Of a stretch of DNA of 64,000 nucleotides, positions 8,670 through 29,400 are shown piece after piece. The position numbers and the translations under genes are program-made. How positions within the stretch are numbered: position 1 is the first letter of the stretch; each line of letters starts with the position of its first letter. The notes under the pieces were generated by a model. The model worked only from the letters and a program-made list of their open reading frames with translations. It ran no database searches and was not told the DNA's origin. This DNA comes from Eubacteriales bacterium (GTDB taxonomy: Bacteria; Bacillota; Clostridia; Oscillospirales; SIG627), in NCBI GenBank assembly GCA_045536965.1, contig JAZSON010000029.1, positions 72,052-136,051 of the forward strand, in the 5' to 3' direction.

Positions 8670-8707
8670 GTGGACATAAACTGTAAAAAATGAAAGGTGG
8701 AGCATGT

Positions 8708-9265: not shown

Positions 9266-9267
9266 TT

Positions 9268-11296: not shown

Positions 11297-11354
11297 GTAT
11301 ACTGCATTTTTTTAAATACAATGCTTTATCACAATAATCACAAAGGAGATTGTT

Positions 11355-14300
11355 ATGAACACAAACAAACGTATTCTCTCTCTGCTTCTTTCGGTGCTTA
11401 TGCTTCTGTCTTTGCTCCGGCAGGACTGTTTGTATTCGCAGAAGGTGCCATGAATGCAGGAAATACTGTCTATGTCGATCAGACAAACGGCTCTGATGAA
11501 ACAGGCGACGGTACTGAGGCAAAGCCTGTTCAAACCATTGAAAAAGCAGTTGAACTGCTCGAAGCAGGAGATAAAACTGCAGATGGTTACGTTTATCTCT
11601 TAGATGATTACTCCGCCGTTTACAACGGAGAAAAATCCGGCGCCGAAGCCTTGACAAGCGTTTTGCCCGCCCATACCCGCCACATTATTATTACGGGTAA
11701 CGTGGGAAATAAACCCACTTGGGAATTGAGATTTAAACCGTTGATTTACAAGGACTTTTTTACACCTACGGCTAATAGACACGGCGCTGCCAGTTTGTAT
11801 CCTCTTACCAACGGCCCGTCACCTTTGATGCCGTTACGGTTCATTCGACGGTAGATAAGGAAAACTATATCCAATTCCCGACGACGACCACCTATACCAT
11901 TCCGGCAGATCATCCGAATGAAAAATATAGAGCCTATGCCGGTAAAACCATTACCTTTGAAGAAGGTTCCTATCTTTATATAGATTACAACATCACCGAT
12001 AACGGTGACGGCACCCTTACACTCACCCCGAATGGTGATGCGAAATACTATCTCCTGATCAACACTTTGCGTTGGATCCCCAAGGGATATTTCGCCACCA
12101 CCGCGAATAACACTCTCACTTGGGATACTGCGGCTGAAACCGACCGTCAGAACAGTGCTTTCCCGACCACGAAAGGAAATGCAGGTCACTGCCAAGTGGT
12201 TGCTCAAAAATATTTCTATTTTAATGCTCCCACTACCTTGAACGGCACCGGATGGGATTTATGCTACGCTTGCGTAGAGGGTGCAAAAAAAGGTGTTCAA
12301 CCCGAAAGTGAGATCATTCTTACCATCGGTGTAAACTCCGATCTTATCGGCAGATATTTGAATGCTCCCGCCAAAACAGCTCCTGCTTCCACCAAGGTAA
12401 CCTATGTGATCGAGAAACAAGGTTTTAACTGGACGCATACTACCTACAATATTTTTGGTGGCACCAAGACTTCCCCCGAAATCCTTTGTGACTTTGCGGT
12501 TGTTGTCAAAGCATCGGGTGCAAAATTTGCCGGCGGTTTGACAGAATCTTCCACCGCGACAGGCAAAGGTACCTACAATCTTGTGATTGACAATCCCTCG
12601 GTTAACTTCAGTGCCGCCGATCAGCTCATGAGCGGCTTTAACTCTTTGCAGTTTACAAACGTTGGTGAAGGCTTTACCTTCGATAACAGGAACCGTTTCA
12701 TACCTTCTCGACAGCGGCACTGTTGCCTACGCGAAGGGCGATGCCGAAGAAGAAATCGTTCTTCCCGAGAGCGAGACCGTTATTGTCGGCAATTCCATCA
12801 CCCTTGCCGCTCCTGCCACTACCACCCTTGCCGATGGCAAAAAATTTATGGGCTGGATGGATAAAGAGGGCAAACTTTACAAGGCAGGGGATGTTTTCGC
12901 GGTGGATGCAGCCGTTACCTTCACCCTGACCGCTGTTTGGGAACTTTGCATCAGCTTTACCACCGGTTATGAAGAAAGCGGCGTTTTCCAAAGCGACATT
13001 GCTGTCGATTTGGGTGAAAAATTCGCACTACCCAATGATCTTCGCGGCACCATCGTCAACGATGGCAAGTATGATCTTGTGTTCTACGGCTGGAATATTG
13101 GCGGCAAGATCCGTTTTGCCGGCGAAACGCTTACCATGGACGGCGCTGACCTTTCCGCCGAAGCCGTTTGGGTTCCCGCTATCTTCGTGGATGGCACCAA
13201 CGGAAATGATGAAGAGGCAGATGGCACGAGAGCGAAGCCTTACCAAACCCTCAATGCTGCCTATAAAGCGTTGGGTGATCTTCTCAGTGACCGCGGTAAT
13301 ACCGATGCGGCAGGCGCGGTTTATCTGTTAAGCGATGCGGCGTTTGCACCCATCGACGATTCTGTTTATTATCGCGAGTCGTCAAGTGTTGTAGCCCTCC
13401 AATCCCTCAATATGCCGATACTCTTTACCGCCGCGACTGCCAATACGGTATGCGAATTCAAAATGACTACGCAAATTTATATCTACTTCAATAACGATAT
13501 CTTATTTGATAACGTTAGCGTAGCCGTGACCTCCGAGTCCTATCCGAACGATACTAACATTCGTATGTATCCCAGTGGTGATTTGTATTTCGGCTTGCAT
13601 GTAAAAACCGAGCAATTTGTTATTGACTGCAATCAATTGATCGAGTTCTCGGCGGATTGCAAAGTGTATAACGGCACATTTAAACAAATCAACATGGGTG
13701 GCGCATCTTCTGTCCGTACCATGAACTTCAATCTCTATTTCGGTAACGGTACGAAAGAATCCACACCGTTTATTGATCCTGTTTTCCCGAATGGTCAAAA
13801 GAATGTCAACTCTCTCATTAACGCCGAATTCCGCTCCGGCACTGTCAATACTCTCGATATCAGAAAAAGCGGTACCGTTGCTGCCAACGATGATAGAAAA
13901 CTCTCGGGCGATCTGATCTGTAAGATTTACAAAGGTATAACTCTTACTAAAATTACAGACGGTGCTCCGATTTATTGTGAACAAACGTACAACAATAAAC
14001 AATACACCGATACTGAACACATGCATGATATGTCGAGAACGATCATTTTCAATGGATTCTGTGGTTCTGTATACTATGGCCATGGCACAGTGACAGGAAG
14101 TGTTGAGTATGATCATGAACTTCCCAACGGTCTGGATGCTATCGCATTTATCAATGGCGCAAACGTTACCTTTACAAACCATGCTCCCCGTATTGCCGCG
14201 CGTGCAAATGGTATCGGTAATGTTTATGTGGATGCTACCTCCACCTACACCGGAAAGGATATCATCCCCGTTTACTATGACCACGAAAATGAAGTCGAAG

Positions 14301-14785
14301 TTGACGGAACACACCTTTCACCCATTGCAGGTACCCTCCACACTTGGAACGGCACCGAATGGACCACCGATGTTTACGGTGCAGCCCTCGGCGCACAAAG
14401 ACGTACCACCGCTCCTTACGGCATCCGCTTTGGATTTGTCGGTTCTACCGCCACCCTTGAAGCCATGTTCGGACAAAAAGTAACCAAGGGAATTCTCCTG
14501 ATTCCCACCGCTCTTTTGAACGAAACCCTGGAACTTGACACCGAAAATGTTCTCAATGTAGAAGCCAAGGTTTCCTTCAGCTTGAGCCAGCCTAACGTCT
14601 TCACCGCTATGCTGATTGACGATTACGACAATTCTTCCGAAAAATGGCTGGAAACTTGGGAAAATGTAGAATTCACCGCCCGCGCATATTTTGAGCTTGC
14701 CGACGGTACCGTGTTCTACTCCGATTCTATCACAAAGAGCATCGCTTCCATCAACCAAGCATTGACCGAGATGTTGCCCGCCTGA
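11355..14785 (+). pseudogene. Cassette A giant secreted protein, disrupted (three frame breaks; lacks the middle module)
   Basis: AAAGGAG SD and ATG at 11355 encode signal peptide MNTNKRILSLLLSVLMLLSLL. The frame is lost at about 11417-11420, where the paralogs read LLPAG. There is a second shift at about 11815-11821, at the NGP(L)T motif. An out-of-frame internal deletion junction lies at about 12685-12692. The ORF-track pieces 11321-11854, 12067-12864 and 12662-14785 each align to the paralogs in turn. Confidence 0.75.
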
Positions 14786-14800
14786 TAGGGAGGAAGAGTC

Positions 14801-14920
14801 ATGAAAAACGTATATGAATCCCCCGCAATGATTTCTCTGGAATTTCCGGAAGAAATCATGTCCATCAGTTTCGGCGATAACTATGGTTCATTGCTTCCCG
14901 GTTGGGGAGAACCGAACTGA
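14801..14920 (+). CDS. Conserved 39-aa acidic small ORF, copy 1 (MKNVYESPAMISLEFPEEIMSISFGDNYGSLLPGWGEPN)
   Basis: GGGAGGA SD. The ATG lies 15 nt after the upstream stop (TGA then TAG). A terminator follows 22 nt downstream. Compared with copy 2 there are 6 synonymous and 2 non-synonymous codon differences. Confidence 0.7.
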   Translation: MKNVYESPAMISLEFPEEIMSISFGDNYGSLLPGWGEPN

Positions 14921-14942: not shown

Positions 14943-14981
14943 GCGAAGCACGCTTCTTATTGAAGTGTGCTTCGCTTTTTT
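14943..14981 (+). terminator. Rho-independent terminator of cassette A
   Basis: Arms gcgaagcac/gtgcttcgc followed by TTTTTT. Confidence 0.75.
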
Positions 14982-15096
14982 ACTTCACGCCAAAAGGTAA
15001 AAAAGGATTTTTTGTGATTTTGTTTTGATTTTCCCATGCAGTGAATGTTTTTTTGTTTCCATGTGTTAAAATATCGCAAATTGAAAGCGAGATATA

Positions 15097-15182: not shown

Positions 15183-18100
15183 ATGAAAAACACAAACAAG
15201 CGCATTCTCTCTTTTGTGTTGTCTGCTCTTATGCTCATCTCTCTGCTTCCCGCAGGTATGATGGCAGGCGCGTTGGATGCTATGAACGCAACCAATACGA
15301 TCTATGTAGATCAGGCAAAAGGTTCGGATACCAACACAGGTACCGAATCGTCTCCCGTTAAAACCATCGAAAAGGCTGTTGAACTGCTTGAAGCGGGCGA
15401 CAAAACCGCCGATGGTTACATCTACCTCAAAAGTGATTATTCCCAACTGTATGACGGTAGAGGCCAGCGTAACTTTTTAGACATTATGCCCACCCATACC
15501 CGTAATATCATCGTAACGGGTAATGCAAATAAAAAGCCGACCTGGGAAATGATCATTGCTTGCAGTGCGAGCACCTCTGCCGCTTATTTGAAAGAGCGTC
15601 ATTTGGCCGCCTCGGGCTATATTCGCAACAATGGTCCTTTGACCCTTGATGTGGTTAAGGTTAATGTAAAGACCGACCCCAACAACCTCACCACTATTGC
15701 TTTGAAAATGGAATATGAATTCCCTGCAGGTCATGAATTTGCAGGCAAGAAGCTTGCTTTCAAGGGTGGCGATTATCTTTACAAAAAGTATGATCTTGCC
15801 ATCGATCCCAATAACGCTGCGTATGTGATCGATGTTACCGATCGTACCAAAGAAAATGAAGTATATCCCGTCCGTATGAACGATCTGCGTTGGACCACCA
15901 ATGCTAAATTCGTTGCAACCGAAAACTGCGAAGTTACCTACGAAGATCAGGCGGATAATTCTCGTTTGGAGGCGGATATCCCCACCACTTCGAGTCATGT
16001 CAAAGAGATCAACTACATCTATTTCCAACCCTACTCCAATGCCTCCTTGTACGGCGGCTTCTTTGGTGACGGCTGGGTTGTAGGTGCAAGCGCCACCTAT
16101 GATGATGAAGTGATTCTGACTATCGGCAGCAAGGATGCGTTGAAAATCCTCCGCGCTCCCAGTGCAGATGTTCCTGCCACCACCAAGGTTTCCTATGTTT
16201 TCGAAACCCCCGATGTTTTTAACATCCCCTTCTATACCTCCGAGAAAACGAACGCACCTGCCCTGAAATGTGAATTCAGCATGGTTTTGAAAACGACAGG
16301 TGTAACCTATGGTACGGGCGCAAGCGATATTGCCGAGTTGTACACTTCTTATGTAGACGGCTTCGGTACCTACAACATCGTATTTGATAACCCTGCCGAA
16401 ACATTTGACCAGAATCTTTTGTTGCCCGGTTACCATTCCCTTTATTTCAAGGGAATCGGCGGTTCCCTTTCCTTTGATTTTGAATCTCTTCCCCAAGTTG
16501 GTTACAAAGTCATTCGTATCGACGAAGGCGATATTCTCGATCTTCAGGGAACTACCGTTCAAAGAGAATTCATGCTTGACATCGTCAAAGCAGGAAAAAG
16601 CTTTGAAAACGATTCTTTCCCCGTAATTTATGCCGATGATGAATCGGTTCTCGACTTCATCACCCTGACCGAAGAAGCCGAAGCGCTCGGTTCTTTGGTA
16701 TATTCCGAAGATGACTATGCTGTTTACTACACCTTGGATCGCGGCAATGTTGTCTATGAAAAAGGCGATACCGACGAAGATGTTGAAATGCCCGCCGACT
16801 CCGAAACCGTTTTTGCAGGCGAAAACATCATCGTCAGCGCGCCCGTAAATAGCACTCTGGAAAACGGAAAGAAATTCTCCGGTTGGAAAGATGCGAAGGG
16901 CAACATCTATCAGCCCGGCGACAGCTATATGATCAACTCTAACGGCAGTGTAACCCTCACCGCAACTTGGGGCTTCCCCCTCTCGTTTGTGACAGGTTAT
17001 GAAGATGCCGCAACTCCCGTCACCAGAGAAGACATGTTCTTCGTTCCCGGTGACAGAGTGGCACTTCCCAATGATCTCCGCGCTTCCGATGAGGATAAAG
17101 ACGGTGTATACACCCTCAAAACCATCACCGATGGCGGCAAGGACTATGTCTTCTACGGCTGGACCATTGATGGCAAGTTCTATCATGCAGGCGAGACCAT
17201 TAAAACGGGTACTACTGCCATCACCGCAACCGCTGTTTGGATTCCCGCCATCTATGTCAAACCCTCCTATGCGGGCAACGACTCCGACGGTTCCAAAGCC
17301 AAACCCTACAACTCGATTCTGAAAGCACAGATGGCCGTTCGCGCTCTCTTTGGTGCCGATGAAGGAAATGAAATCCCCGCCGCTTCCATCGTTATGATGG
17401 AAAACACCATTTGGAACTGGAGCTACACCGAGACCGTTCCCGGTCATGTCGGTGGTGTTCAAGACGATGGCTATACCTATTATGAAAAGAATAGTGCAAA
17501 CGCCAACCATCCCAAACTGAATACTCTCGGCGGATCGGTTCTTTACACGGCAATTTCCAGCGACATCGAAGTTTTGATGTATCAGTACGAATCCCTGTAC
17601 TTCTACATTGCTGACGACTTCATGCTTGACAACTTGACCTACCTTGTCAGCGCCACCCACTCCATTTCCCGTCTTTACTTCACGACCACGGGCAGAGTCC
17701 TTTATATGGGCCCGACCGTGAAATGCTTGAAGAAAAACAACAATACCCAAAACGTAGATACCTTGTATGGTTTGCCTCTCGGTTCTTACAGCGCAACCGT
17801 TCATCAGCAGTATTCCTACATTCTGTTTGATGTCAACTTACCCGATATCACAGCGCATATCTATGGCGGTGAGTACACAGGTCTTTATATGCTCTATGCC
17901 AACGCAGGTACCAACACCTCTTATATCGGTGCTCCCGGTACTACTGGTCCGACCATTGCATATACCGCTCTCGGTAACACCAACAACCATCCTTCCGCTG
18001 TTTGGGATTACTACCAATATTCGGGCAATGTAAAGGAATTTCGTTTCGGTGTTCTTTCTACCGCTAACAATATTTTCCGTGGTACATGGAATCTCCATTT

Positions 18101-20396
18101 CTATGGCAACGCCAAATTCACCCTCAAAGACTGGAATGCTGCGTATGCAGGCAATGTAACCGATAGAAAAGCCAACCAGCAGACCATCAATCTTTATTTT
18201 GAAGATTGCGATGCCGAAGTGACCACAAACCATCAAAACACACCCCACCAAGCTACAATTGCTACCTCCAAAGGCGCCACCCTCGGCGATGACTATTACA
18301 ATTCTTCTGTCAGCGGTGCCAACACTATCTATTATTACAGTGCAACCAATCCCAGTGGTATTTCCTCTATTTCCTTGAAGAACAGTAATGTCGAATTCGT
18401 TAACCCCTTGTATGTCAGATCTGGCGCAGGCGTCAGCTTCTCGCAGGATGAAAACTCCTCTTATGTCGGTAACATCTACGCTACCAAAGATACCTTTGTC
18501 AAGGGTGAAGGCAATGTTTACACCCCCGTCGAAGTCACCCAAGTGCTTTCGGGCATGGGCGTGAAAGGCCAAGCGATCTCTACTTGCTTTAACGGCGAAA
18601 AATGGGTAAGAACCTATGCCTTTAACTATGAAACGGGCTATGATAGCGTGAAAATCGATGGCTCCTTCGGCGGCTTTGCAGGCAACCGTATCGTTCTGTC
18701 CGATGCACTTCGCGGCCAAGTAGTCACCGATGCAGGCAAAGAACTCACCTTCTTCGGTTGGAATATCGATGGCAAATTCTACGATGCAGGCGACGGCTAT
18801 GTGCTGGGTGAATCCGATGCAACTGCCACGGCAGTTTGGGTTCCCGCCATCTTCGTGGATCCCACCTATGCAGGCGGCAACTCCGATGGTTCCAAAGCAA
18901 AACCCTTCGTGAAAGTTGCAGATGCGTATGCAGCCCTGAAAACCCTCCTTGCTTCTTCGGATGCTGTGGGCGGCGCTGTATATCTCCTTTCCGATGCTGT
19001 GATGGATGCAGAACCCGACACCTCTTTTGCTCCTGTTTCCAACATTCCCAGCCTCGAGGATGCAGGTAAACCCGTTCTCTTTACCGCAGCGAATAAAACC
19101 ATTAAGTTCACCACCGATAACGAAAGCTACTCCAACACTCTCCATTTCCTCGGTTCTGTGATGTTTGATAACCTCACCCTCCGTGTGAAGGGTACCACCT
19201 TTATCAGACTTACGCCCGCCAAGGACGCTTACTTTGGCCCGAATTTTGCTTTTGAACAACCCAGCGGTTACAGAGTCGTTTATCTGGATGGTCAAAACCA
19301 AAATGTTGAAGAAGTAACCTACAAAATTTATAACGGCACCTTCTCTCTCGTTTGCTTTGGTTCCAACTTTACCAAAACCACCTATGCCAAGCAAAACGTC
19401 TATGTGGGTACAGGTGAATCTACCTCTGCTCCCACAGTGTCCAACCTCTTTGCAAACACGATTGCCACATTCGTCAATGCAAAAGTTGAATTGCGTTCGG
19501 GCACCGTGACCAACGCCATCCTCGGCACAAACTACGGCAACGCTGCTTACAGCAATGCACAGCCTTTCGGCGAATGGATTTACGTTGTCTACAACGGCAT
19601 GAACATCGGCAACATCCGCGATGCTTATTCCGATGGCGCAAATCAAATCCCCGCAACGACAACTTATTGCGCTAACCTTACGAGAACCCTGATCTTCGAT
19701 GGTTACAAAGGCAACATTGCATATAACCACTTTGCCAATACCAACGAAACCGTTGTCAACGGTATCAATAACGTTTCCTTTATAGGTGGCGCACAAGTCA
19801 ACTTTACAACTAACGATGTAGTTGTTACCTCCGGCTCTGTCTACGTCGAAGAAGGCTCTTCCTACACCGGCAAAGCCATCAAAGGCAGCTGCATCCATGA
19901 AGGAAACGAAGTGCAGGTTGCTTTGACTCCCGCAAATGGACTCAACACTTGGAACAGCGATAAGGATCACACCTGGACCACCGATGTTTACGGTGCAGCC
20001 CTCGGCGCACAGATCCGTGTCGAAGCTCCTTACGGTATTCGTTTCGGCTTCAATGGTTCCACCACCGCTCTCGAAGCTATGCTCGGCCAAGCCGTTGCTG
20101 AAAAAGGCGTCCTGATCATCCGTGATTCCATGTTGGATGGCGCTTTGACCCTTGACACCGAAAACGTTTTGAAGATTGTCGCAAACAAAGCATACAGCTT
20201 GACCCAGTCTGCTGTCTTCACAGGCGTTTTGGTCGACACCCCCGATGCCGGCGCTTCTTCCAAAGCATGGCTGGAAACCTGGAAAGATGTTGATTTCACC
20301 GCCCGCGCTTACTTCAAACTGGCCGATGGCAGTGTGATCTACTCTAACAGCGATACCAACAGCATTGCGGCTATTTCCGCTTCGTTGGTCGGCTGA
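15183..20396 (+). CDS. Giant secreted multi-module protein (1737 aa): signal peptide, three beta-helix-cap modules separated by InlB-B/Flg_new-like repeats, conserved C-terminal domain
   Basis: AGGAGG SD and signal peptide MKNTNKRILSFVLSALMLISLLPAG. The motif YV(D/K)...G(S/N)D..GS...P(V/Y/F)K(T/S) recurs three times, at about 15298, 17241 and 18841. (F/Y)(Y/F/S)GW..(D/N)GK.Y..G......(T/A)ATA(V/T)W repeats are present. The ORF is uninterrupted. Confidence 0.9.
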   Translation: MKNTNKRILSFVLSALMLISLLPAGMMAGALDAMNATNTIYVDQAKGSDTNTGTESSPVKTIEKAVELLEAGDKTADGYIYLKSDYSQLYDGRGQRNFLDIMPTHTRNIIVTGNANKKPTWEMIIACSASTSAAYLKERHLAASGYIRNNGPLTLDVVKVNVKTDPNNLTTIALKMEYEFPAGHEFAGKKLAFKGGDYLYKKYDLAIDPNNAAYVIDVTDRTKENEVYPVRMNDLRWTTNAKFVATENCEVTYEDQADNSRLEADIPTTSSHVKEINYIYFQPYSNASLYGGFFGDGWVVGASATYDDEVILTIGSKDALKILRAPSADVPATTKVSYVFETPDVFNIPFYTSEKTNAPALKCEFSMVLKTTGVTYGTGASDIAELYTSYVDGFGTYNIVFDNPAETFDQNLLLPGYHSLYFKGIGGSLSFDFESLPQVGYKVIRIDEGDILDLQGTTVQREFMLDIVKAGKSFENDSFPVIYADDESVLDFITLTEEAEALGSLVYSEDDYAVYYTLDRGNVVYEKGDTDEDVEMPADSETVFAGENIIVSAPVNSTLENGKKFSGWKDAKGNIYQPGDSYMINSNGSVTLTATWGFPLSFVTGYEDAATPVTREDMFFVPGDRVALPNDLRASDEDKDGVYTLKTITDGGKDYVFYGWTIDGKFYHAGETIKTGTTAITATAVWIPAIYVKPSYAGNDSDGSKAKPYNSILKAQMAVRALFGADEGNEIPAASIVMMENTIWNWSYTETVPGHVGGVQDDGYTYYEKNSANANHPKLNTLGGSVLYTAISSDIEVLMYQYESLYFYIADDFMLDNLTYLVSATHSISRLYFTTTGRVLYMGPTVKCLKKNNNTQNVDTLYGLPLGSYSATVHQQYSYILFDVNLPDITAHIYGGEYTGLYMLYANAGTNTSYIGAPGTTGPTIAYTALGNTNNHPSAVWDYYQYSGNVKEFRFGVLSTANNIFRGTWNLHFYGNAKFTLKDWNAAYAGNVTDRKANQQTINLYFEDCDAEVTTNHQNTPHQATIATSKGATLGDDYYNSSVSGANTIYYYSATNPSGISSISLKNSNVEFVNPLYVRSGAGVSFSQDENSSYVGNIYATKDTFVKGEGNVYTPVEVTQVLSGMGVKGQAISTCFNGEKWVRTYAFNYETGYDSVKIDGSFGGFAGNRIVLSDALRGQVVTDAGKELTFFGWNIDGKFYDAGDGYVLGESDATATAVWVPAIFVDPTYAGGNSDGSKAKPFVKVADAYAALKTLLASSDAVGGAVYLLSDAVMDAEPDTSFAPVSNIPSLEDAGKPVLFTAANKTIKFTTDNESYSNTLHFLGSVMFDNLTLRVKGTTFIRLTPAKDAYFGPNFAFEQPSGYRVVYLDGQNQNVEEVTYKIYNGTFSLVCFGSNFTKTTYAKQNVYVGTGESTSAPTVSNLFANTIATFVNAKVELRSGTVTNAILGTNYGNAAYSNAQPFGEWIYVVYNGMNIGNIRDAYSDGANQIPATTTYCANLTRTLIFDGYKGNIAYNHFANTNETVVNGINNVSFIGGAQVNFTTNDVVVTSGSVYVEEGSSYTGKAIKGSCIHEGNEVQVALTPANGLNTWNSDKDHTWTTDVYGAALGAQIRVEAPYGIRFGFNGSTTALEAMLGQAVAEKGVLIIRDSMLDGALTLDTENVLKIVANKAYSLTQSAVFTGVLVDTPDAGASSKAWLETWKDVDFTARAYFKLADGSVIYSNSDTNSIAAISASLVG

Positions 20397-20411
20397 TAGG
20401 GAGGAGAAATC

Positions 20412-20531
20412 ATGAAAAACGTGTATGAATCTCCCGTAATGATTTCTCTGGAATTTTCGGAAGAAATCATGTCCATCAGTTTCGGTGATAACTATGGTTC
20501 GCTTCTTCCCGGTTGGGGAGAACCAAACTAA
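20412..20531 (+). CDS. Conserved 39-aa acidic small ORF, copy 2 (MKNVYESPVMISLEFSEEIMSISFGDNYGSLLPGWGEPN)
   Basis: GGGAGGAG SD. The ATG lies 15 nt after the TGA-TAG double stop of the giant gene. A terminator follows 17 nt downstream. Confidence 0.75.
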   Translation: MKNVYESPVMISLEFSEEIMSISFGDNYGSLLPGWGEPN

Positions 20532-20548
20532 ACCAAACCTAAAAGCCG

Positions 20549-20585
20549 TGAGGCGCACTTAGTTAAAAGTGCGCCTCATTTTTTT
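20549..20585 (+). terminator. Rho-independent terminator of cassette B
   Basis: Arms tgaggcgcac/gtgcgcctca followed by a 7-T run. Confidence 0.85.
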
Positions 20586-20781
20586 GTAAAAGATTTGCCG
20601 GTGCACGCCAACCATACAAAATCCTTTATGCAAAACCTACCCCAACCTCGTAAGGGAGGATACCATCTTCCCGATAATTTTGCATTTTACCCATTTGCAT
20701 CTTTGAAAAAAAGTTCTGCCATGAATCTTCAATTATGCAATTTATATAATTATGGGTGCTGTAATTTGATAAGTTTATCCA

Positions 20782-20810
20782 TTGACATCATGTGTATTGA
20801 ATGTTAAAAT
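20782..20810 (+). promoter_or_regulatory. Cassette C promoter
   Basis: TTGACA (20782-20787), 17-nt spacer ending TGt, TAAAAT (20805-20810). Confidence 0.6.
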
Positions 20811-20869
20811 TTACTTGGTATATTATAAATTATATGATGATATTACCAAAATTTTTAGGAGGATTTAAG

Positions 20870-23800
20870 ATGAAACACACAAACATGCGCATTCTCTCAT
20901 TTGTGTTGTCTGCTCTCATGCTTCTTTCTTTGCTTCCTGCGGGTATTCTTGCGGGTGCAGCCGATGCCATGAATGCAGAAAACACCATCTATGTGGATCA
21001 GGCCAAAGGCTCTGATGCTAATGATGGCTCCAAATCCAATCCCGTGAAAACCGTCGTAAAGGCTGTTGAACTGCTCGAGGCAGGCGACGTGACCGCCGAT
21101 GGTTACATCTATCTTGTCGGTGATTACACCGCTCGATATGTAGGTAAAAACCTTGCGGGAACTGCGTTTGGTTCCGTTATCGATTATCTCCCCGTGCACA
21201 CCCGTCATATCATTGTGACCGGTGACCCTTCCGACAAACCGACCTGGACTCTCCAGATTGCAGTTCCGGCGGGTTCGGGTTACCCCGATCGTCATGCACC
21301 GGGTTCTGCCTATTTGCGCACCAACGGACCTTTGACCTTAGATGCGATTGCGGTGTATGTTACAAATGATAAAACCAATCTCACCGTGTTTCCCCAAGAT
21401 CTTGAATACTCTATTACCGGCGGTACATTCGCGGGTAAAAAATTCAAGCTCAAAGCCGGTGAATATCTTTATAAGATCTATGATTTTGCCGAGGATCCTC
21501 AAAACAGCGGTTATGTAATCGATGTTACCGACCGTTCGTCCGATCCCGAAAAACAAATTAAATTCCCCGTGCGTATCAATGACTTCCGCTGGATTATCAA
21601 TGGTACTTTTACCAGTACGGCGAATTTCTCCTTGAGTTATGACAACGCGATCGATCCCGATCGTGCTGCTGCTACTTTGGTGACCAATACCACCGATAAC
21701 AGCAAAAATATCACTCAGATCTATACCATCCCGTTTGCCTCTGCCTCGTTTTACGGTGGCAACTGGGGTAGCTTGATGGTTTATTCCACCTCGTCTTACG
21801 GCGCTTCCTATTCCACCGATGATCTTGTTGTGACCATTGGTGAAAAATCGGGTATTGGTTCTGTTTATTATCCCAACAGCACCGTTCCCGCAACCGTTAA
21901 AAAGGTGACCTATGTCATCGAAGAAGCAGGCAGAAAGATCAGCAATCCTTTTTACCTCGCTACCACTGAACCTATCATCAACTGTGACTTTTATTTGCAC
22001 ATCAAAGCTTCCGGTGTGATTATGGGGGCTGGCGGTTTGACCGAAAAGTCTTATATTTCGGGCAAAGGAACCTACAATCTTATCATCGAAAATCCCGGTG
22101 AAAATTTTGACTCGTCCCTCTTGCTCTCGGGCTATCATTCCCTCTATTTCAAGGGAATCGGTGGCGCCCTTTCCATGGATTTTGAATCTCTTCCCGCAGT
22201 CGGTTACGAAATTATTCGTATCGATGAAGGCGATACCTTGGATTTGCAGGGCACCGTTTTAGAAAATAAATTCATCCTTGACATTGTCAAGGCAGGTGAA
22301 AACTTTGAAAATGACTCTTTTGAAGTCATTTATGCCGACGATGAATCTGTTCTCGACTTTATCACCCTCACCGAAGAAGCCGATGCGCTCGGATCTTTGG
22401 TATATTCCGAAGATGACTATGCCGTTTACTACACCTTGGATCGCGGCAATGTTGTCTATGAAAAAGGCGATACCGAGGACGAAATCAAAATGCCCGAAGC
22501 CTCCGAAACCGTTTTGGGCGGCGAAACCATTGTTTTAGGTGCGCCCGCCAAGACTGTTCTTGAAAATGGCAAGAAGTTCTCCGGCTGGAAAGATGAATTG
22601 GGCAGAATTTATCAAGCAGGCGATACCTTTACCATCAAAGTCAACGGCACCGAAACCCTGACCGCAACCTGGGGTATTTCCATGTCCTTTGTTACAGGTT
22701 ATGAGTCGGCAGGTGTTGTCAGACAAGATTTGTTCTATGTTCCCGGCGAAAGAGTAACACTTCCCTCCGATCTTCGTGCAGATGATCAGGATGGCGACGG
22801 TGTCTCCACCTTGAAGATCGTCACCGACGGCGGTAAGGACTATGTGTTCTACGGTTGGACCATCGATGGTAAGTTTTACCATGCGGGCGAGACCATCCAA
22901 ACCTCCGATACCCTCATCACCGCAACCGCTGTTTGGGTTCCCGCCATTTATGTCAAACCCACCTACGCAGGCGGCGATTCGGACGGTTCTAAGGCAAAAC
23001 CTTATACCTCCATTTTGGCAGCCCAAATTGCCATGAACAAGCTTTTTGGTGAAACCACCGAAGAGGATGTTCCGGGCGGCTCCATTGTTATGCTTGAAGA
23101 TACTGTTTGGAGCTTTAGCTATTTGCAAAACATCGGCGACACCCCCAACCCCGGCTATGTTGGCGGCGCGCAAGCCGATGGAAATGTCTATTATACCAAT
23201 ACCGGTGCTCAGGTTCTCATGAAGGCGCTCAAGAGAAATGTTCTTTACACGGCCATTTCCAATGATGTAAGAGTTCTGTTCTACCAGTATGAAGCAATTT
23301 ATTTCTACTCTGAAGGCGATTTCTTCATCGATAACCTTTCCTACTTCACCCGTTGCTATCATTCCATTCCGCGTTTGTATCTCCAATCACCCAATAAAGT
23401 TCTTTATATTGGTCCGACTGTCAAGACCGCATCGAGTTCTTCCGCTGCATCCTTTACAGCCGATGATTATCTCTATGCAACCCATTCCTCCGATGCTGTG
23501 AATACAGGCAAAGCCCCTGTTTATTCCAAATTCTTGTTTGATATGAATAAAGCGGGTTCTACCGCTTACATTCTCGGTGGTGAGCACGTCGGTCTTTACG
23601 GTGTTTACGGTACCAGTGGTGTTTATACCTCCTACATTGGCGCTCCCAATACCGATGGCCCGACACTTGATTACATCGCACTCGGTAACACAAACTCCAA
23701 GACAACCACCGATACTTGGAACTATTACCAGTATTCGGGCAATGTGAAAGAAATCCGTTTTGGTGCTCTTTCTAACTACGACTATATGTTCCGCGGTACT

Positions 23801-26113
23801 TGGAATCTTCATTTCTATGGAAATGCAAACATCAAACTTGATGATGCTGTAGCTAGCTATTATGGCAATACGTCCACAAGAAATCCCAACGCACAGATCA
23901 TCAACCTCTTCTTTGAAGATTGCAAGGCTACGGTAACGACCCTGCATGATAACTTGCCCCACCAAGCTACAATCGCTACCTCCAACGGCGCAACCCTCGG
24001 CGACGATTATTATAAATCGGTTGTCAGTGGCAATAACACCATCTATTATTACGACGCTACTGTTCCGAGTGGTGTAAATTCGATTTCCTTGAAGAACAGC
24101 CAGGTCAATTTCTCCACCCCCTTGTATGTCAAGTCGGGCGCAGATGTTACCTATGCTCAGGATGAAAAATCTTCCTATACCGGTAGTATCTACGCCACCA
24201 AAGACACCTTTGTCAGGGGTGAAGGCAATCGTTATACCGCTGTTGAAGTCACCGATGTCCTTGCAGGCATGGGTGTCGAAGGAAAAGTCATTACTGCTTG
24301 CTTTGATGGTGATAAGTGGAAGCAATCCTTCAGCATGAGCTATCAAACCGGTTATGACTCTGTTAAATTTGATGTCACCGCAGGCGGTCTTGCAGGTACT
24401 CGTCTGGTATTGTCCGATGCACTCCGTGGCCAAGTGGTTACTGATGCAGGCAAAGAACTGACCTTCTACGGTTGGAATATCAATGGCAAGTTCTACGATG
24501 CGGGCGATGCTTATGTACTGGGTGAATCCGATGTCATTGCCGCGGCAGTTTGGGTTCCCGCCATCTTTGTCGATCCCGCTTATGCTGGCGGCGATTCCGA
24601 TGGTAGCCGAACCAAACCTTTCGTAAGCGCTTTGGATGCCTATGCAGCTGCTGTTGCCGCTGAAGGTGATGCCATCGCAGTTGTTCTTCTCGCAAATGCC
24701 ACTATGACGCAAACCGCAGAATCTTCCTTTGACATGGTAGGCACAGCAACGGGCTTTGCCGATGCAGGCAAGAGAGTGCTTCTTACCGCTGTTTCAAGCG
24801 ATATCACTTTGACGATTGACAGCGGCAGCAGCTCCTCTTATGTCAGAATTTTCAACTCTATTATGTTTGATAACCTGACTCTCCATGCGACTACTTCTTC
24901 GGCGGCCTACATCCGACTTCTTCCCGCCAAGGATATTTACTTTGGCCCGAACTTTATTTTCGCCCAACCCACCGGCTTGAAGTATTTCGGTCTCGATGGT
25001 ATGTATCAGGAAGCTTCGGAAGTGATCTATAAGATCTACAACGGCGCCGTCAACTTTGTTTACCTCGGTACTTCCATTGTTTCTACCGAACAAACCAAGG
25101 CCAATGCATTGATTGGTACAGGCGAAGAAACTTCTAAGCCTGAAATCGACCTTGTATCCGTCAATACACTTTCGGCTGTCGTTTCTGCCAAGGTTGATTT
25201 CCGTTCGGGTATAATTAAGAGAGGAATGTTAGGTGCCACCAAGGGTGGTGCGGGCGATACCTCTTACGCCACCAAGCAACCTTCGGGCGATTTCATCTTC
25301 ACCGTTTATAGCGGTGTAACCGAATTGTGTCTTATGGATTCCTGGACAGGCGTCAACCCCGGACTTTCCTCTTATTGCGCCAACCTTTCCAGAACCCTTG
25401 TTTTTGACGGTTATGTCGGCAATGTTAAATACATCCACTACAGTGCAGCAAATGGTATTTTTGCAAACGGTATCGATAACATTGCGTTTATCAATGGTGC
25501 AAAAGTTAACTTTACCAACAATGATGTAGTCGTAGCCGCCCGTGCAAACGGTGTTGGCAGTGTCTATGTCGAAAGCGGTTCTTCTTACAGTGGTAAGGTC
25601 ATCAAAGGTGCCTACATCAACGAAAGTGCCGAAGCTTTTGTCGACTTTACCCCCGTTGTCGGTAAGATCAACGCGTTCAATGGTACTGCATGGACAACCG
25701 ATACTTACGGTGCAGCCCTCGGCGCACAGATCCGCGTAGAAGCCCCCTATGGTATCCGCTTTGGCTTTGTCGGTTCTAACGCCGCCCTCGAAGCTATGCT
25801 CGGTCAGGCTGTTGTCGAAAAAGGTGTGTTGGTTATCCGCAGCTCGCTGTTGGAAGGCAAACTCACTCTTGATACAGAAAATGTTCTCAAGATCGTTGCT
25901 GAAAAAGCCCATTCCTTGAAACAATACAACTGCTTCAACGGTGTTTTGGTCGATACTGCCGACGCAGGTGCTTCTTCGGAAGCTTGGTTGGAAGCATGGG
26001 AGAATGTTGACTTTACCGCTTGCGCCTACTTTACGTTGGCCGACGGCACTGTTCTTTACTCCAATAGCACCCAAAACAACATCGCAGGTGTATACGCTTC
26101 GCTGGTCGGTTGA
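20870..26113 (+). CDS. Giant secreted multi-module protein (1747 aa), paralog of 15183-20396
   Basis: AGGAGG at 20857-20862, then the ATG at 20870, gives signal peptide MKHTNMRILSFVLSALMLLSLLPAG. The ORF-track start at 20801 lies inside the promoter. The module order matches cassette B. Confidence 0.9.
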   Translation: MKHTNMRILSFVLSALMLLSLLPAGILAGAADAMNAENTIYVDQAKGSDANDGSKSNPVKTVVKAVELLEAGDVTADGYIYLVGDYTARYVGKNLAGTAFGSVIDYLPVHTRHIIVTGDPSDKPTWTLQIAVPAGSGYPDRHAPGSAYLRTNGPLTLDAIAVYVTNDKTNLTVFPQDLEYSITGGTFAGKKFKLKAGEYLYKIYDFAEDPQNSGYVIDVTDRSSDPEKQIKFPVRINDFRWIINGTFTSTANFSLSYDNAIDPDRAAATLVTNTTDNSKNITQIYTIPFASASFYGGNWGSLMVYSTSSYGASYSTDDLVVTIGEKSGIGSVYYPNSTVPATVKKVTYVIEEAGRKISNPFYLATTEPIINCDFYLHIKASGVIMGAGGLTEKSYISGKGTYNLIIENPGENFDSSLLLSGYHSLYFKGIGGALSMDFESLPAVGYEIIRIDEGDTLDLQGTVLENKFILDIVKAGENFENDSFEVIYADDESVLDFITLTEEADALGSLVYSEDDYAVYYTLDRGNVVYEKGDTEDEIKMPEASETVLGGETIVLGAPAKTVLENGKKFSGWKDELGRIYQAGDTFTIKVNGTETLTATWGISMSFVTGYESAGVVRQDLFYVPGERVTLPSDLRADDQDGDGVSTLKIVTDGGKDYVFYGWTIDGKFYHAGETIQTSDTLITATAVWVPAIYVKPTYAGGDSDGSKAKPYTSILAAQIAMNKLFGETTEEDVPGGSIVMLEDTVWSFSYLQNIGDTPNPGYVGGAQADGNVYYTNTGAQVLMKALKRNVLYTAISNDVRVLFYQYEAIYFYSEGDFFIDNLSYFTRCYHSIPRLYLQSPNKVLYIGPTVKTASSSSAASFTADDYLYATHSSDAVNTGKAPVYSKFLFDMNKAGSTAYILGGEHVGLYGVYGTSGVYTSYIGAPNTDGPTLDYIALGNTNSKTTTDTWNYYQYSGNVKEIRFGALSNYDYMFRGTWNLHFYGNANIKLDDAVASYYGNTSTRNPNAQIINLFFEDCKATVTTLHDNLPHQATIATSNGATLGDDYYKSVVSGNNTIYYYDATVPSGVNSISLKNSQVNFSTPLYVKSGADVTYAQDEKSSYTGSIYATKDTFVRGEGNRYTAVEVTDVLAGMGVEGKVITACFDGDKWKQSFSMSYQTGYDSVKFDVTAGGLAGTRLVLSDALRGQVVTDAGKELTFYGWNINGKFYDAGDAYVLGESDVIAAAVWVPAIFVDPAYAGGDSDGSRTKPFVSALDAYAAAVAAEGDAIAVVLLANATMTQTAESSFDMVGTATGFADAGKRVLLTAVSSDITLTIDSGSSSSYVRIFNSIMFDNLTLHATTSSAAYIRLLPAKDIYFGPNFIFAQPTGLKYFGLDGMYQEASEVIYKIYNGAVNFVYLGTSIVSTEQTKANALIGTGEETSKPEIDLVSVNTLSAVVSAKVDFRSGIIKRGMLGATKGGAGDTSYATKQPSGDFIFTVYSGVTELCLMDSWTGVNPGLSSYCANLSRTLVFDGYVGNVKYIHYSAANGIFANGIDNIAFINGAKVNFTNNDVVVAARANGVGSVYVESGSSYSGKVIKGAYINESAEAFVDFTPVVGKINAFNGTAWTTDTYGAALGAQIRVEAPYGIRFGFVGSNAALEAMLGQAVVEKGVLVIRSSLLEGKLTLDTENVLKIVAEKAHSLKQYNCFNGVLVDTADAGASSEAWLEAWENVDFTACAYFTLADGTVLYSNSTQNNIAGVYASLVG

Positions 26114-26128
26114 TAGGGAGGAGAAATC

Positions 26129-26248
26129 ATGAAAAACGTGTATGAATCTCCCGTAATGATTTCTCTGGAATTTTCGGAAGAAATCATGTCCATCAGTTTC
26201 GGTGATAACTATGGTTCGCTTCTTCCCGGTTGGGGAGAGCCGAGCTAA
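26129..26248 (+). CDS. Conserved 39-aa acidic small ORF, copy 3 (MKNVYESPVMISLEFSEEIMSISFGDNYGSLLPGWGEPS)
   Basis: Same SD, 15-nt spacing and terminator as copy 2. It is nucleotide-identical to copy 2 over its first 110 nt. Confidence 0.75.
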   Translation: MKNVYESPVMISLEFSEEIMSISFGDNYGSLLPGWGEPS

Positions 26249-26265
26249 ACAAAACCTAAAAGCTG

Positions 26266-26300
26266 TGAGGCGCACTTATTAAAAAGTGCGCCTCATTTTT
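26266..26300 (+). terminator. Rho-independent terminator of cassette C
   Basis: Arms tgaggcgcac/gtgcgcctca followed by TTTTT. Confidence 0.85.
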
Positions 26301-26343
26301 CTTTTAACGCCTCATCCTAACCGATGGTATGATGAGAATTGTA

Positions 26344-26430: not shown

Positions 26431-29400
26431 ATGAAACACACAAACAAGCGTATTCTCTCATTTGTGTTGTCTGCTCTCATGCTTCTTTCTTTGCTTCCTG
26501 CAGGTATCCTTGCGGGTGCGGTTGATGCCATGAATGCAGAAAATACCGTTTATGTCGATCAGAGCAAAGGTTCTGATTCCAACAACGGTACCGAATCCAA
26601 TCCCGTCAAAACCATCGAAAAGGCTGTTGCGTTGCTTGAAGCAGGCGATAAGACTGCCGATGGCTACATCTATCTTGTCGGTGATTATACGGCTGTATAT
26701 GATTGTACTGAGACATCTCAGAATATCTCTCTTGTGCCGGTTCATACCCGTCATATCATTATCACGGGTGATTCCGACAGCAAGCCCACTTGGACCGTGA
26801 AAATCCATTGCTCTACTTTGGCTACTTATATGGATGTTACCGCTGACAACAAAATGAGACAAGGTATGAACGGTGTTAGATATTTAAACAACGGACCACT
26901 TACCTTGGACTTTATCAAAATGTATTCGACGGTAGATGAAACCAACGCCATCATCTTCCCCCAAGATATCGAATACACCTTTAAGGATACGCATGCAAAC
27001 GAAAAATATAAAGCATTTGCCGGCTATAAATTTGTATTTAAGCAAGGCGAACCGCTTTAGAAAGAATATGACTTTGCAATCGATGCCAACAACCCCGGTT
27101 ATCTCAAAGATGTTACCGATCGCTCGAAATATTCGGATAAATATTGCGTTTTTATCAATGACTTGCGTTGGGCTCCCAATGCCTATTTGGGACTGACCGA
27201 AAATGTCGAGATTTCTTATAATAAAACGCCTGATTACGATCGTAAAAATGCGGCATTCCCTGTCATGGACAATGCATACTGCCTGCCTATTTCTCAGCTC
27301 TACTTCCAGGCCTATGCTTCCGCTGATATTTACACCGATATTTTTGATGGCAACAGAGGTACCATTTGGGTCATGTCCGCATCCTATGGTGTAACCCATG
27401 CTTCTGAAATCGTCCTCACCATCGGTCCCAAGGTAGGAGATGCTTCTACTGTCGATCTTTATTCTCCTGCTAAAAATGTTCCCGCTTCCACCAAAGTAAC
27501 TTATGTCATTGAAAAACCCGATTTCGTAATCAATCAGCCTTTTTATGAGTCGACCGAGTCTCCTGCTATTAAATGTGACTATTCACTTGTCATCAAAGCA
27601 CCCGGCGTTACTCTAAAAGATGGTAAACAGTTGACCACTTCCGCCACTGCTGCGGGGTGCGGCACCTATAACCTTGTAATTGAAAATCCTGCCAAAAATT
27701 TGAATGACGGTCTTTTGCGTTCGGGTTTCTATTCGTTGTATTTCAAAGAAGTCGGCGGTACCCTTTCCTTTGACTTTGCCTCCTTGCCCCAGGTTGGTTA
27801 TCAAGTTATTCGCTTCAACGAAGGGGATAGTCTTGATTTGACAGATACTTTGGATAGAGAAATCATGCTTGACATTGTCAAGGCCGGTAAAGAATTTTCA
27901 AATGACTCCTTCGAAGTGATCTATAGCGACGATGATTCCCTCCTTGAGTTCATCACCCTCACCGAAGAAGCCGATAAGATCGGTTCTTTGGTGTATTCTG
28001 AAGACGATGGTGTGGTTTACTACCAGTTGGATCGCGGCACCGTCTCCTTCAACAAAGGCGATATTGATGAAGATGTTGCAATGCCCGCAACCACCAAAGA
28101 AGTTTTGACAGGTAAGACCATTACCCTTCCCACTCCCGCCACTACCACTCTTGCAAACGGCAAAAAATTCTCGGGGTGGAAAAATGAGGCAGGTAAATTC
28201 TTTGCCGCAGGTTCGGAATATACCATTTCCGTCAATGGTAACGAAACCCTCACCGCTGTTTGGGGACTTGCGTTCTCCTTTGTTACAGGTTATGAAAATT
28301 CCGATGCCACTCCTGTTGTACAAAATGAAATTTTGGTTGGTGTTGGCGAAAAGTTTGTTCTTCCCAACATCCGCGGCACCATCGTCAACGATGGAAAATA
28401 TGACCTCGTATTCTACGGTTGGAATGTAAACGGCAATATCCGTTTTGCAGGGGAGACCCTTGTAATGGATGGAACCGGCCTTTCCGCCACCGCTGTTTGG
28501 GTTCCTGCTTTCTATGTGGCTCCTTCCTTCACAGGCGAATCCGACGGCACTTTCGACGCTCCCTATAAGTCGGTTGTTGAAGCCCAGCACAACATCAAGG
28601 TTTTCTTTGAGAATGCTCAAAATAAGGCTGCTTATGCGGCCGGTGCGATTGTTTTGAAAGAAGATGCTGTTTTGGATTGGACGCCCGCAGGCCCCAATTC
28701 TTCCTTCGGCGGTGTCACCTATTATACCACCAAAGGTTTGGCTGTTGAAATCGGAGCTCCCATACTTTTTGTCGGTATCACCAGCGACGTTTCTTTGACA
28801 CTTTTCAACTCTTCGACTCAAAATGACTTTACCATTGGAAAATCTCTTCTCTTTGACTATCTTGTACTTCGCTCCATTTGTCGTTATAACCCGATCCGTG
28901 TGCACACAACGGGTGGCTCTGAATTGTCTCCCGCTATGCTGTACTTCGGTCCTGCCTTGACCACCTCCGTTCCTACAACGGCTCTGCCCGCTGAATATGC
29001 ATCTTTGACAACCCATGTTTGGGCTCGTTTCCTCATTGAGCCTAATACCATGACGAACGTGCACATTTATGGCGGTGATAGTTGGTATGGTGTTTATGCC
29101 TGCAACTCCAAGTCCTCCACCAACACCTATATCGGTTCTCACGGCGACGACACTTACCCCGTTGTTCCTGTCGCGCAAATCGTCAACTCAACGACTCTTT
29201 CCGAAAACGTATGGAATTATTATCAGTACGGCGGCGTAGTAACCAAGTTGAATACAGGTCTTCAAGCAAGCGGCAAACCCGCTGTGAATGAGGGTGTTGT
29301 CAACATGTATTTCTATGGCGGTGTTGTCACCACGTTCATGGACGGTTTGGACTACTCTGCTGCGACAAATTCCCGCAATCCTTCTCCTATCAAGAGAAAC

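Follow-up and report, generated by a model that had tools for sequence, protein, structure and literature searches.

Three copies of a 39-codon small open reading frame (sORF) lie directly behind giant genes for beta-helix surface proteins in a 64,000-nucleotide stretch of the genome of an Eubacteriales bacterium of the Clostridia (GTDB lineage SIG627; assembly GCA_045536965.1, contig JAZSON010000029.1, positions 72,052 to 136,051 of the forward strand; hereafter the window). The second copy, at 20412-20531 of the window, is the subject of this analysis. Judging from its substitution pattern, the sORF is a genuine coding gene under strong purifying selection, and the peptide belongs to a rare and undescribed family whose members recur at the 3' ends of giant surface-protein genes. 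In a fifth giant paralogue, a tail resembling the peptide is fused to the protein itself, and we tentatively propose that the peptide is a tail or partner that is supplied in trans to the giant beta-helix proteins.

The sORF closes giant-gene operons

All three sORFs (14801-14920, 20412-20531, and 26129-26248; plus strand) encode MKNVYESP(A/V)MISLEF(P/S)EEIMSISFGDNYGSLLPGWGEP(N/S), an acidic peptide with one Lys and six Asp/Glu that has no Cys, no signal peptide, and no transmembrane segment. They are absent from the gene calls of the source NCBI assembly, and positions, translations, and composition agree with an initial annotation that had been made of this DNA. Each ATG stands 15 nt past the TGA of the giant gene as had been noted, but only 12 nt past the TAG that comes right after it, so the distance given earlier is true of the first stop codon and not of the double stop. 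A Shine-Dalgarno sequence, GGGAGGA(A/G), overlaps this TAG in front of each copy, and the hairpin of an intrinsic terminator with T-run begins 16-22 nt past each sORF stop codon, which bears out both elements described initially. Strong terminators are found in this region solely 3' of the sORFs, apart from one behind the DUF2207 gene, which lies upstream of the array. Because the gap is 15 nt, no terminator lies between the two genes, and a terminator follows only past the sORF, the plain reading of this layout is that the sORF is co-transcribed with the giant gene and would be translated from a strong Shine-Dalgarno sequence of its own. The window sORFs share the reading frame of the giant gene upstream. 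A fusion with the giant gene by read-through or frameshifting was considered and rejected in view of the two consecutive stop codons, the sORF's own strong Shine-Dalgarno sequence, and the out-of-frame arrangement of the homologue in Clostridiales bacterium UBA5448.

Coding capacity and selection

To judge selection, the three window copies were compared with five metagenome copies whose protein divergence from them reaches ~20%. The ratio of non-synonymous to synonymous substitution rates (dN/dS; Nei-Gojobori) is 0.02-0.2 at a dS of ~1-2, and the difference between synonymous and non-synonymous changes is significant for three window-versus-metagenome pairs (Fisher p ~1e-7) and for copy 1 versus copy 2 (0.002). 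Variable alignment columns are distributed 10/4/25 over codon positions 1/2/3, and the two alternative frames contain stop codons in every sORF copy. Nucleotide identity along the aligned paralogous 3' ends peaks at the sORF, with 97-100% between copies 2 and 3 and 78-97% between copy 1 and copies 2/3, versus at most 85% in the flanking windows. Across homologues, the peptide is 79-97% identical as compared to 41-72% over the C-terminal 60 residues of the giant proteins, and relatives with as little as 45% identity retain nine invariant residues. The strong conservation that the initial annotation had noticed is well supported by the dN/dS values and this identity peak. The profile search that it had suggested found homologues in other assemblies that preserve the reading frame of the sORF, with a coding-type pattern of substitutions.

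Since even the non-coding terminators of copies 2 and 3 are almost the same, some of what these two copies share reflects a recent duplication or gene conversion. This event has no bearing on comparisons that involve copy 1 or other assemblies.

A rare and undescribed peptide family

A word-index search with the peptide yielded 11 metagenome peptides that form a single 90%-identity cluster, and a HMMER search with the family profile against 1.84 billion representatives revealed four further small peptides (P0012, P0013, P0015, and P0017). Profile searching added P0019-P0023 and cluster look-ups P0024-P0027, giving a family of about ten 90%-identity clusters in which every member is 38-59 aa long and annotated at most as "hypothetical protein". 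Among the GTDB species representatives, a family member occurs only in Clostridiales bacterium UBA5448. The scan of viral contigs yielded no family member, and there is consequently no sign of a phage origin. Matches to long proteins in the representative scan (P0014, P0016, and P0018) are repeat artefacts and not fusions, and a match on a high-GC soil contig in the metagenome-contig scan (L003) is spurious. Pfam and NCBIfam contain no family for the peptide, a search of the PDB with the peptide profile was equally empty, and literature searches gave no match for its motif strings and nothing relevant on small proteins coupled to surface proteins.

Invariant across the family are Y5, E6, P8, F15, M20, G25, N27, P33, and W35, with S23 and D26 nearly so. 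The N-terminal half reads MK.xYExPxΦ....F..(E/D).(I/V)M (Φ, hydrophobic residue), including a Y-E-x-P-x-(M/I/L/F) stretch within residues 4-10 that is invariant in all 17-plus members. The C-terminal half follows S[FY]G(D/E)Nx(G/A)xLΦP(G/D)W (in short form [FY]GDNxGxLΦPGW) and ends in a tail that is variable in both sequence and length, with 2 to 16 residues from the Trp to the stop codon. A reading of LPGWG as an LPxTG sortase signal was discarded, given that transmembrane segment and charged tail are missing and that the motif varies as ΦP(G/D/N)W. When modeled alone with the family alignment, the peptide shows no secondary structure in AlphaFold2 (predicted local distance difference test score, pLDDT, 66; predicted template modeling score 0.16). 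It is thus predicted to be intrinsically disordered on its own, as would be expected of a peptide that folds upon binding.

The N-terminal motif recalls the leaders of RiPPs (peptides synthesized by the ribosome and then modified post-translationally) that are bound by a RiPP recognition element (RRE). The leader consensus for discrete lasso RREs, [Y/W]xxPx[L/V/I/A/F/Y], is common to the precursors of linear polyphosphorylated peptides (LPP) and pyrroloquinoline quinone (PQQ) as well (PMC13381572). The peptide conforms to it except that the Met at the last position of the window copies is off the published list, yet hydrophobic. The YxxP resemblance pointed out initially is therefore real at the level of the motif, and its extended form YExPxΦ is invariant across the family. 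Residues 1-12 of P0012 and P0013 match the NCBIfam model lasso_cyano with E-values of 0.006 and 0.053 (16.5 and 13.5 bits against a cutoff of 33), and residues 2-12 of P0013 match Pfam DUF5972 below its cutoff (E 0.11). A further match of the family profile covers the N-terminal 24 residues of a small ORF (43 aa) of Faecalibacterium prausnitzii (MKKTYEAPVTEIVTFEAADVITTS...). In strain UBA1082, this ORF lies between a family-2 glycosyltransferase gene and one for a HprK/ScmC-like P-loop kinase (L019:2766-4991). The locus resembles RiPP loci of LPP- or lasso-related type and appears to have only the leader format in common with the window peptide.

Genomic context of the homologues

Directly behind a large surface-protein gene (class A), the peptide is found in four subfamilies with gaps of 6-31 nt, including the three cases in the window. 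The 15-nt layout of the window recurs at loci L001, L002, L004-L008, and L010, several of which then start another giant gene. P0012 (L024/L025) follows after 24 nt upon a gene with the same C-terminal domain. In UBA5448 and GCA_002427005.1, two giant genes in tandem encode proteins of 1200 and 1662 aa, and a 45-aa homologue, the same in both cases, lies 31 nt behind each of them; its identity with the window peptide is only ~59%. P0017 (L022) lies 6 nt behind a gene whose large product contains a related "G.RI...GMRF" domain and then an end that reads as Ig-like Big_2, an assignment made by eye without a profile. The upstream proteins of class A end in or contain ...W(L/Y)(E/D)xWxx(V/I)xFTARAY(F/Y).(L/M).DG(S/T)(V/I).YS.... 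The TGA-TAG double stop is not kept in the homologues. In four of the five layouts, sORF and upstream gene share one reading frame, UBA5448 being the exception, and this arrangement would be compatible with the fission of a C-terminal tail. On the UBA5448-type contig L012, the giant 3' ends, the sORFs, and the first part of the hairpin are identical at the DNA level (4330-4640 and 9932-10245), indicating that this cassette of C-terminal domain, sORF, and terminator was duplicated or gene-converted recently.

Other homologues stand alone (class B). The P0015/P0022 subfamily has its own promoter (TTGACA-17-TATAGT, with an extended -10 element), Shine-Dalgarno sequence, and terminator and sits among housekeeping genes, with a GAPDH-like and an oxidoreductase-like gene flanking it at L020 (recognized by eye from their translations). 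Two of these loci (L020 and L021) come from the same samples as the class A loci L001 and L002. P0013 is encoded directly 3' of an orthologue of the window's DUF2207 gene (9268-11178), that is, in a syntenic position, with no giant gene present. This orthologue shares its GGGFSGGG...GGGGSW end with the window DUF2207 protein (L023:1-370). Some class B members (P0015, P0022, and P0023; L020:1118-1273 and L026:254-433) are longer and repeat ΦP(G/D/N)W. They also carry DSDGDGIPDWMD with the DxDxDGxxDxxD calcium-loop pattern as in thrombospondin type-3 repeats, though the match to TSP_3 is not significant (E 0.15).

A peptide-like tail on a fifth paralogue

An ORF at 20-2986 (plus strand) belongs to a paralogue that runs in from the edge of the window and occupies 2-2986, and the first residues of the ORF match the last 59 of giant protein 3. 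It has a giant-type C-terminal domain (2-172), followed by ~930 aa with matches to Beta_helix and DUF4957, and ends just ahead of a terminator. Its tail (Table 1) can be aligned with the peptide at SPVM and at (F/Y)GDNY.S...GWG with 26.9 bits, whereas the best scores in 200 residue-shuffles of the six-frame translation of the window have a mean of 19.3 (standard deviation 1.4, maximum 23.1). We regard this match as suggestive, not proven. A second peptide-like match, at 58447-58560 within a sortase gene (57934-58875, plus strand), reaches 23.5 bits, about what the best shuffles score, and is taken as chance.

Because of the fused tail and the four in-frame layouts out of five, sORF and tail may well share their origin. 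The data would fit an sORF that arose as a split-off C-terminal tail or, conversely, a tail that arose by fusion. A fused form of this kind may also hint at a shared function in the manner of a Rosetta stone.

Maturation genes and known peptide families

Pfam and NCBIfam scans of every plausible gene in the 64-kb window found no PqqD/RRE, radical-SAM, SPASM, lasso cyclase, transglutaminase-like/B2/C39 peptidase, HprK-like kinase, or dedicated exporter, and the earlier statement that the window lacks a maturase thus stands. The same maturation genes were not found within 10 kb on either side on the UBA5448-type contigs L012/L013, where the sole transporter is an ABC_tran/ABC2_membrane pair ~2 kb away.

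We compared the peptide with several established families, and each of them fails in at least one defining feature. A lasso precursor would have Thr at position -2, which is missing here, and a core that opens with Gly, Ala, Ser, or Cys and forms its macrolactam with Asp/Glu at core positions 7-9. No allowed first residue places Asp/Glu there: counted from S21, Asp falls at 6, and counted from G25, Asp falls at 2 and Glu at 13. The residues after the invariant Met vary between S, T, L, G, and D. Neither the window nor the Pfam annotation of L012-L017 includes an asparagine-synthetase-like lasso cyclase, a B1 RRE, or a B2 peptidase. With the LPP consensus YxxPxVLxHQxIxFETxxS, the peptide shares only YxxPxΦΦ, while HQ, FET, and their spacing are absent. 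A HprK/ScmC-like gene is missing from the window and related loci and present only at the unrelated Faecalibacterium locus. Precursors of PQQ or mycofactocin type were dismissed since no scanned window ORF matches Radical_SAM, SPASM, or PqqD, and class II bacteriocins or other double-glycine leaders since GG does not occur at a conserved position and the window does not encode a Peptidase_C39 ABC transporter. An immunity protein of a polymorphic toxin is at odds with a C-terminal domain that is a conserved module without toxin match and with the existence of unpaired peptides and an unpaired giant gene. A regulatory arrest peptide or attenuator does not agree with an sORF that is the last cistron, with terminators at 16-22 nt in the window and ~35 nt at L001, with a Trp that stands at variable distance from the stop codon, or with the invariance of Y5, E6, and P8. 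What likeness is left could, by analogy, lie in a YxxPxΦ strand that docks onto a recognition domain.

Possible functions of the peptide

Because of the tail fused in the fifth paralogue, we slightly favor the proposal that the peptide serves the giant beta-helix proteins in trans as a tail or partner, and we put it forward as a possibility of modest weight. The constraint on the peptide, its recurrent linkage to giant genes, and its predicted disorder count in favor as well. Ribosomes leaving the giant gene would meet the strong Shine-Dalgarno sequence 7-8 nt ahead of the sORF ATG, so that a single mRNA would yield peptide and giant protein side by side at roughly similar levels. The detached tail would then dock onto the giant protein in the form of an extended strand or short linear motif, as a partner in assembly, export competence, or capping. 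In the fifth paralogue, the same motifs are attached covalently at the C-terminal end. It is the binding itself, its site in the cytoplasm or at the surface, and its effect that we infer here. A wider, somewhat doubtful variant would define a class of leaderless micro-peptides made 1:1 with Sec-secreted giants, in which a detached tail with an RRE-leader-like strand docks to its partner or to an unlinked recognition protein and either controls export, folding, capping, or anchoring or is released as a signal of expression.

Several observations weigh against a partner of the giant proteins. The tail of ORF 20-2986 is without the invariant Tyr-Glu, and the family hidden Markov model gives it a non-significant 8.3 bits. 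The giant proteins have a Sec signal and the peptide has none, so any contact must be cytoplasmic before export or proceed via an unknown exporter. The class B peptides comprise two subfamilies, P0015/P0022 (L020, L021, and L026) and P0013 (L023), that stand alone with promoters and terminators of their own, and the peptide must consequently be expressible independently as well; giant paralogue 4, in turn, has no sORF. If tandem duplication and gene conversion copied the 3' cassette, linkage by descent could explain part of the pairing without any interaction. Finally, the AlphaFold2 model of the giant C-terminal domain alone (pLDDT 46) is too poor for a fold search. From these contexts, the pairing of peptide and giant gene is frequent and old, but not obligatory. 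The initial annotation had seen an sORF with each giant gene and a fixed pairing, and neither claim survives the bare paralogue 4, the two frameshifts in giant gene 1, and the near-consensus promoters of the stand-alone P0015/P0022 and P0013. The latter also show that homologues do not always lie 3' of giant genes, a point that it had proposed to check.

The main rival is a RiPP-like or signaling precursor composed of a ~20-residue RRE-type leader ([Y/W]xxPxΦ) and a core ([FY]GDNxGxLΦPGW) that would be modified and/or exported by unlinked RRE-dependent machinery, with its expression tied to the giant operons. YExPxΦ is invariant in every member and has the format of lasso, LPP, and PQQ leaders (PMC13381572), and the sub-cutoff matches to lasso_cyano and DUF5972 at the N-terminus, the profile match to the Faecalibacterium ORF beside a glycosyltransferase and a HprK/ScmC-like kinase, and the predicted disorder point in the same direction. 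So do the strong promoters of the stand-alone copies, the variable sequence and length of the tail after the Trp, and the longer members with their repeated ΦP(G/D/N)W and a TSP3-like calcium loop, which is typical of extracellular proteins. However, every profile match falls under its curated cutoff, the rules for lasso cores are violated, and the putative core is conserved as much as the leader. RiPP precursors normally adjoin their maturases, but maturation genes are absent from the 64-kb window and from 10 kb on either side in L012/L013. A peptide-like tail on a protein of >1000 aa does not fit a precursor, either, and we consider this explanation rather doubtful. We find it unlikely that the peptide is an autonomous cytoplasmic regulator—for instance, a feedback reporter of the giant operon or a small protein with an unrelated target—whose position behind giant genes reflects co-expression only. 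The near-consensus promoters and housekeeping surroundings of the stand-alone copies (L020, and L023 after DUF2207) would suit such a role, as would the missing signal peptide and the strong purifying selection even behind the frameshifted giant gene of copy 1. Yet no target or regulator is evident, and the fused tail and the repeated linkage of four subfamilies to one protein family would be left unexplained.

An immunity or antitoxin factor against a toxic C-terminal domain of the giant protein, as the initial annotation had also considered, is suggested by a small acidic ORF immediately after a giant secreted-protein gene in the same operon. The C-terminal domain, however, has no toxin match, is not hypervariable, and forms an internal structural module in L022. 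The peptide is far more conserved than is usual for immunity proteins and occurs without a giant gene, just as a giant paralogue occurs without the peptide, all of which renders this role highly improbable. Even harder to credit is a non-functional peptide, with the ORF being a mere remnant or mattering only through an RNA structure or through translation of the 3' end as such. ORFs of 39 codons often arise by chance, and the near-identity of copies 2 and 3 extends to the terminator, which points to recent duplication or gene conversion, but a dN/dS of 0.02-0.2 at near-saturated dS, the third-position bias, the stops in the other frames, and nine residues kept down to 45% identity speak for a protein, and Rfam has no match over 11000-32000. 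None of the roles envisaged at the outset is proven, then; those of a partner and of a RiPP or signaling peptide survive, while immunity is unsupported.

Giant paralogues and surrounding genes

The genes upstream of the sORFs belong to an array of four tandem paralogues, of which 2 and 3 are intact (Table 1). The intact giant proteins start with typical Sec signal peptides and repeat the beta-helix start motif YVDxxxGSDxxxGxxxxPxKT several times. Their profile matches in Pfam/NCBIfam are weak (DUF1565 and the LIC10774 surface-protein family), and the Flg_new assignment of the initial annotation finds no Pfam match in the giant proteins at E<=1. The C-terminal domain matches no toxin family in Pfam, NCBIfam, or a PDB sequence search, a PDB sequence search with giant protein 2 gave no match, and a word-index search for homologues of the C-terminal domain returned two fragments only. 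The frameshifts of paralogue 1 lie near 11800-11850 and 12690, and sORF copy 1 is intact regardless. Paralogue 4 has a 1-nt frameshift near 30075 at an A/C run. Pseudogenization, phase variation, or errors of the assembly may account for these interruptions. A near-consensus promoter (TTGACA-17-TAAAAT, with TG) at 20782-20810 overlaps the point, 20801, at which the ORF of paralogue 3 opens, and the true start of this gene is probably at ~20870, where a signal peptide begins with MKHTNMRILSF.

Table 1. Positions of sORFs, associated signals, and giant paralogues in the window
Feature	Positions	Strand	Description
Tail of ORF 20-2986	2897..2986	+	..NAKQSPVMMDHGYGDNYNSTPDGWGSLVS*; resembles the sORF peptide with residues 11-19 deleted
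Giant paralogue 1	11321..14785	+	Signal-peptide-like start, beta-helix start motifs, conserved C-terminal domain; two frameshifts
Shine-Dalgarno, copy 1	14788..14795	+	GGGAGGAA; read directly from the sequence; overlaps TAG
sORF copy 1	14801..14920	+	39 aa, MKNVYESPAMISLEFPEEIMSISFGDNYGSLLPGWGEPN; downstream of frameshifted giant paralogue 1
Intrinsic terminator, operon 1	14943..14985 with T-run (hairpin 14943-14975)	+	14-bp stem
Giant paralogue 2	15183..20396	+	1737 aa, intact; Sec signal peptide, repeated beta-helix start motifs, C-terminal domain (..FTARAYFKLADGSVIYS..)
Shine-Dalgarno, copy 2	20399..20406	+	GGGAGGAG; read directly from the sequence
sORF copy 2	20412..20531	+	39 aa; last cistron of the giant gene 2 operon; subject of this analysis
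Intrinsic terminator, operon 2	20548..20589 with T-run (hairpin 20548-20579)	+	13-bp stem
Giant paralogue 3	20801..26113	+	1770-aa ORF, intact
Shine-Dalgarno, copy 3	26116..26123	+	GGGAGGAG; read directly from the sequence
sORF copy 3	26129..26248	+	39 aa, C-terminal residue S; last cistron of the giant gene 3 operon
Intrinsic terminator, operon 3	26265..26306 with T-run (hairpin 26265-26296)	+	13-bp stem
Giant paralogue 4	26431..31615	+	Same C-terminal domain, no sORF, terminator directly after; TAG in frame near 27058

Just upstream of the giant-gene array lies a LemA-DUF2207 gene pair (8690-11178). The genes around the array are otherwise of housekeeping type and encode a pterin-binding protein, a ParA-like ATPase, an AMP-binding enzyme, an F420-ligase-like protein, GerA, transketolase halves, IleRS, a DivIVA/SepF/YggT cell-division block, MiaA, QueA, DapA/B, UppP, capsule-type functions, a sortase, and a U32 peptidase. 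Two glucuronyl-esterase-like genes on the minus strand (38580-39689 and 39714-40823) are tandem 369-aa paralogues that match GCE_fung, the fungal-type glucuronyl esterase, and suggest a lifestyle of plant cell wall degradation.

Significance and comparison with known systems

Small proteins below 50 aa are systematically missed by annotation, and the sORF described here, uncalled in its source assembly, belongs to a family without any database model that is repeatedly tied to the 3' ends of giant surface-protein genes in uncultivated Clostridia. If the peptide is a tail or partner, it points to a hitherto unknown step in how Gram-positive bacteria produce very large surface proteins of beta-helix type. 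If the peptide were a RiPP precursor, such precursors would be dispersed into unrelated operons far from their maturases, where genome mining by cluster adjacency misses them. A true class of micro-peptides would link the biogenesis of surface proteins with a recognition motif of RiPP style in the absence of a nearby biosynthetic gene cluster.

Like RRE-dependent RiPP precursors, the peptide is small, acidic, and disordered and starts with MK(K/N)xYExPxΦ at the canonical N-terminal position. Unlike them, it has no RRE, cyclase, kinase, SpI/B2 peptidase, or dedicated exporter nearby, its C-terminal "core" is invariant, and its gene is the last cistron of a giant surface-protein operon. With polymorphic toxin-immunity pairs it shares the small acidic ORF within a few nt of a giant secreted-protein gene, but a toxin domain is missing, the peptide shows conservation instead of diversification, and each of the two genes is also found alone. 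ComX-type pheromone precursors are leaderless and modified at a Trp near their C-terminus. The peptide resembles them in its small size, the absence of a Sec signal, and an invariant Trp in a short C-terminal motif with a variable tail, but differs in its N-terminal motif, lacks an adjacent ComQ-like prenyltransferase or ComP-like sensor, and shows no sequence similarity. Beta-helical fibers, finally, have known helpers—downstream-encoded chaperones of phage tail fibers and tailspikes, C-terminal intramolecular chaperone domains, and autochaperone segments of autotransporters—which are folded domains of ~100-200 aa. To these we would compare a 39-aa disordered peptide without export signal or sequence similarity, whose giant partners are Sec substrates and whose interaction with them is only proposed. 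What the two have in common is a small factor that is encoded directly 3' of a long beta-helix gene and that in one paralogue appears fused C-terminally after the beta-helix.

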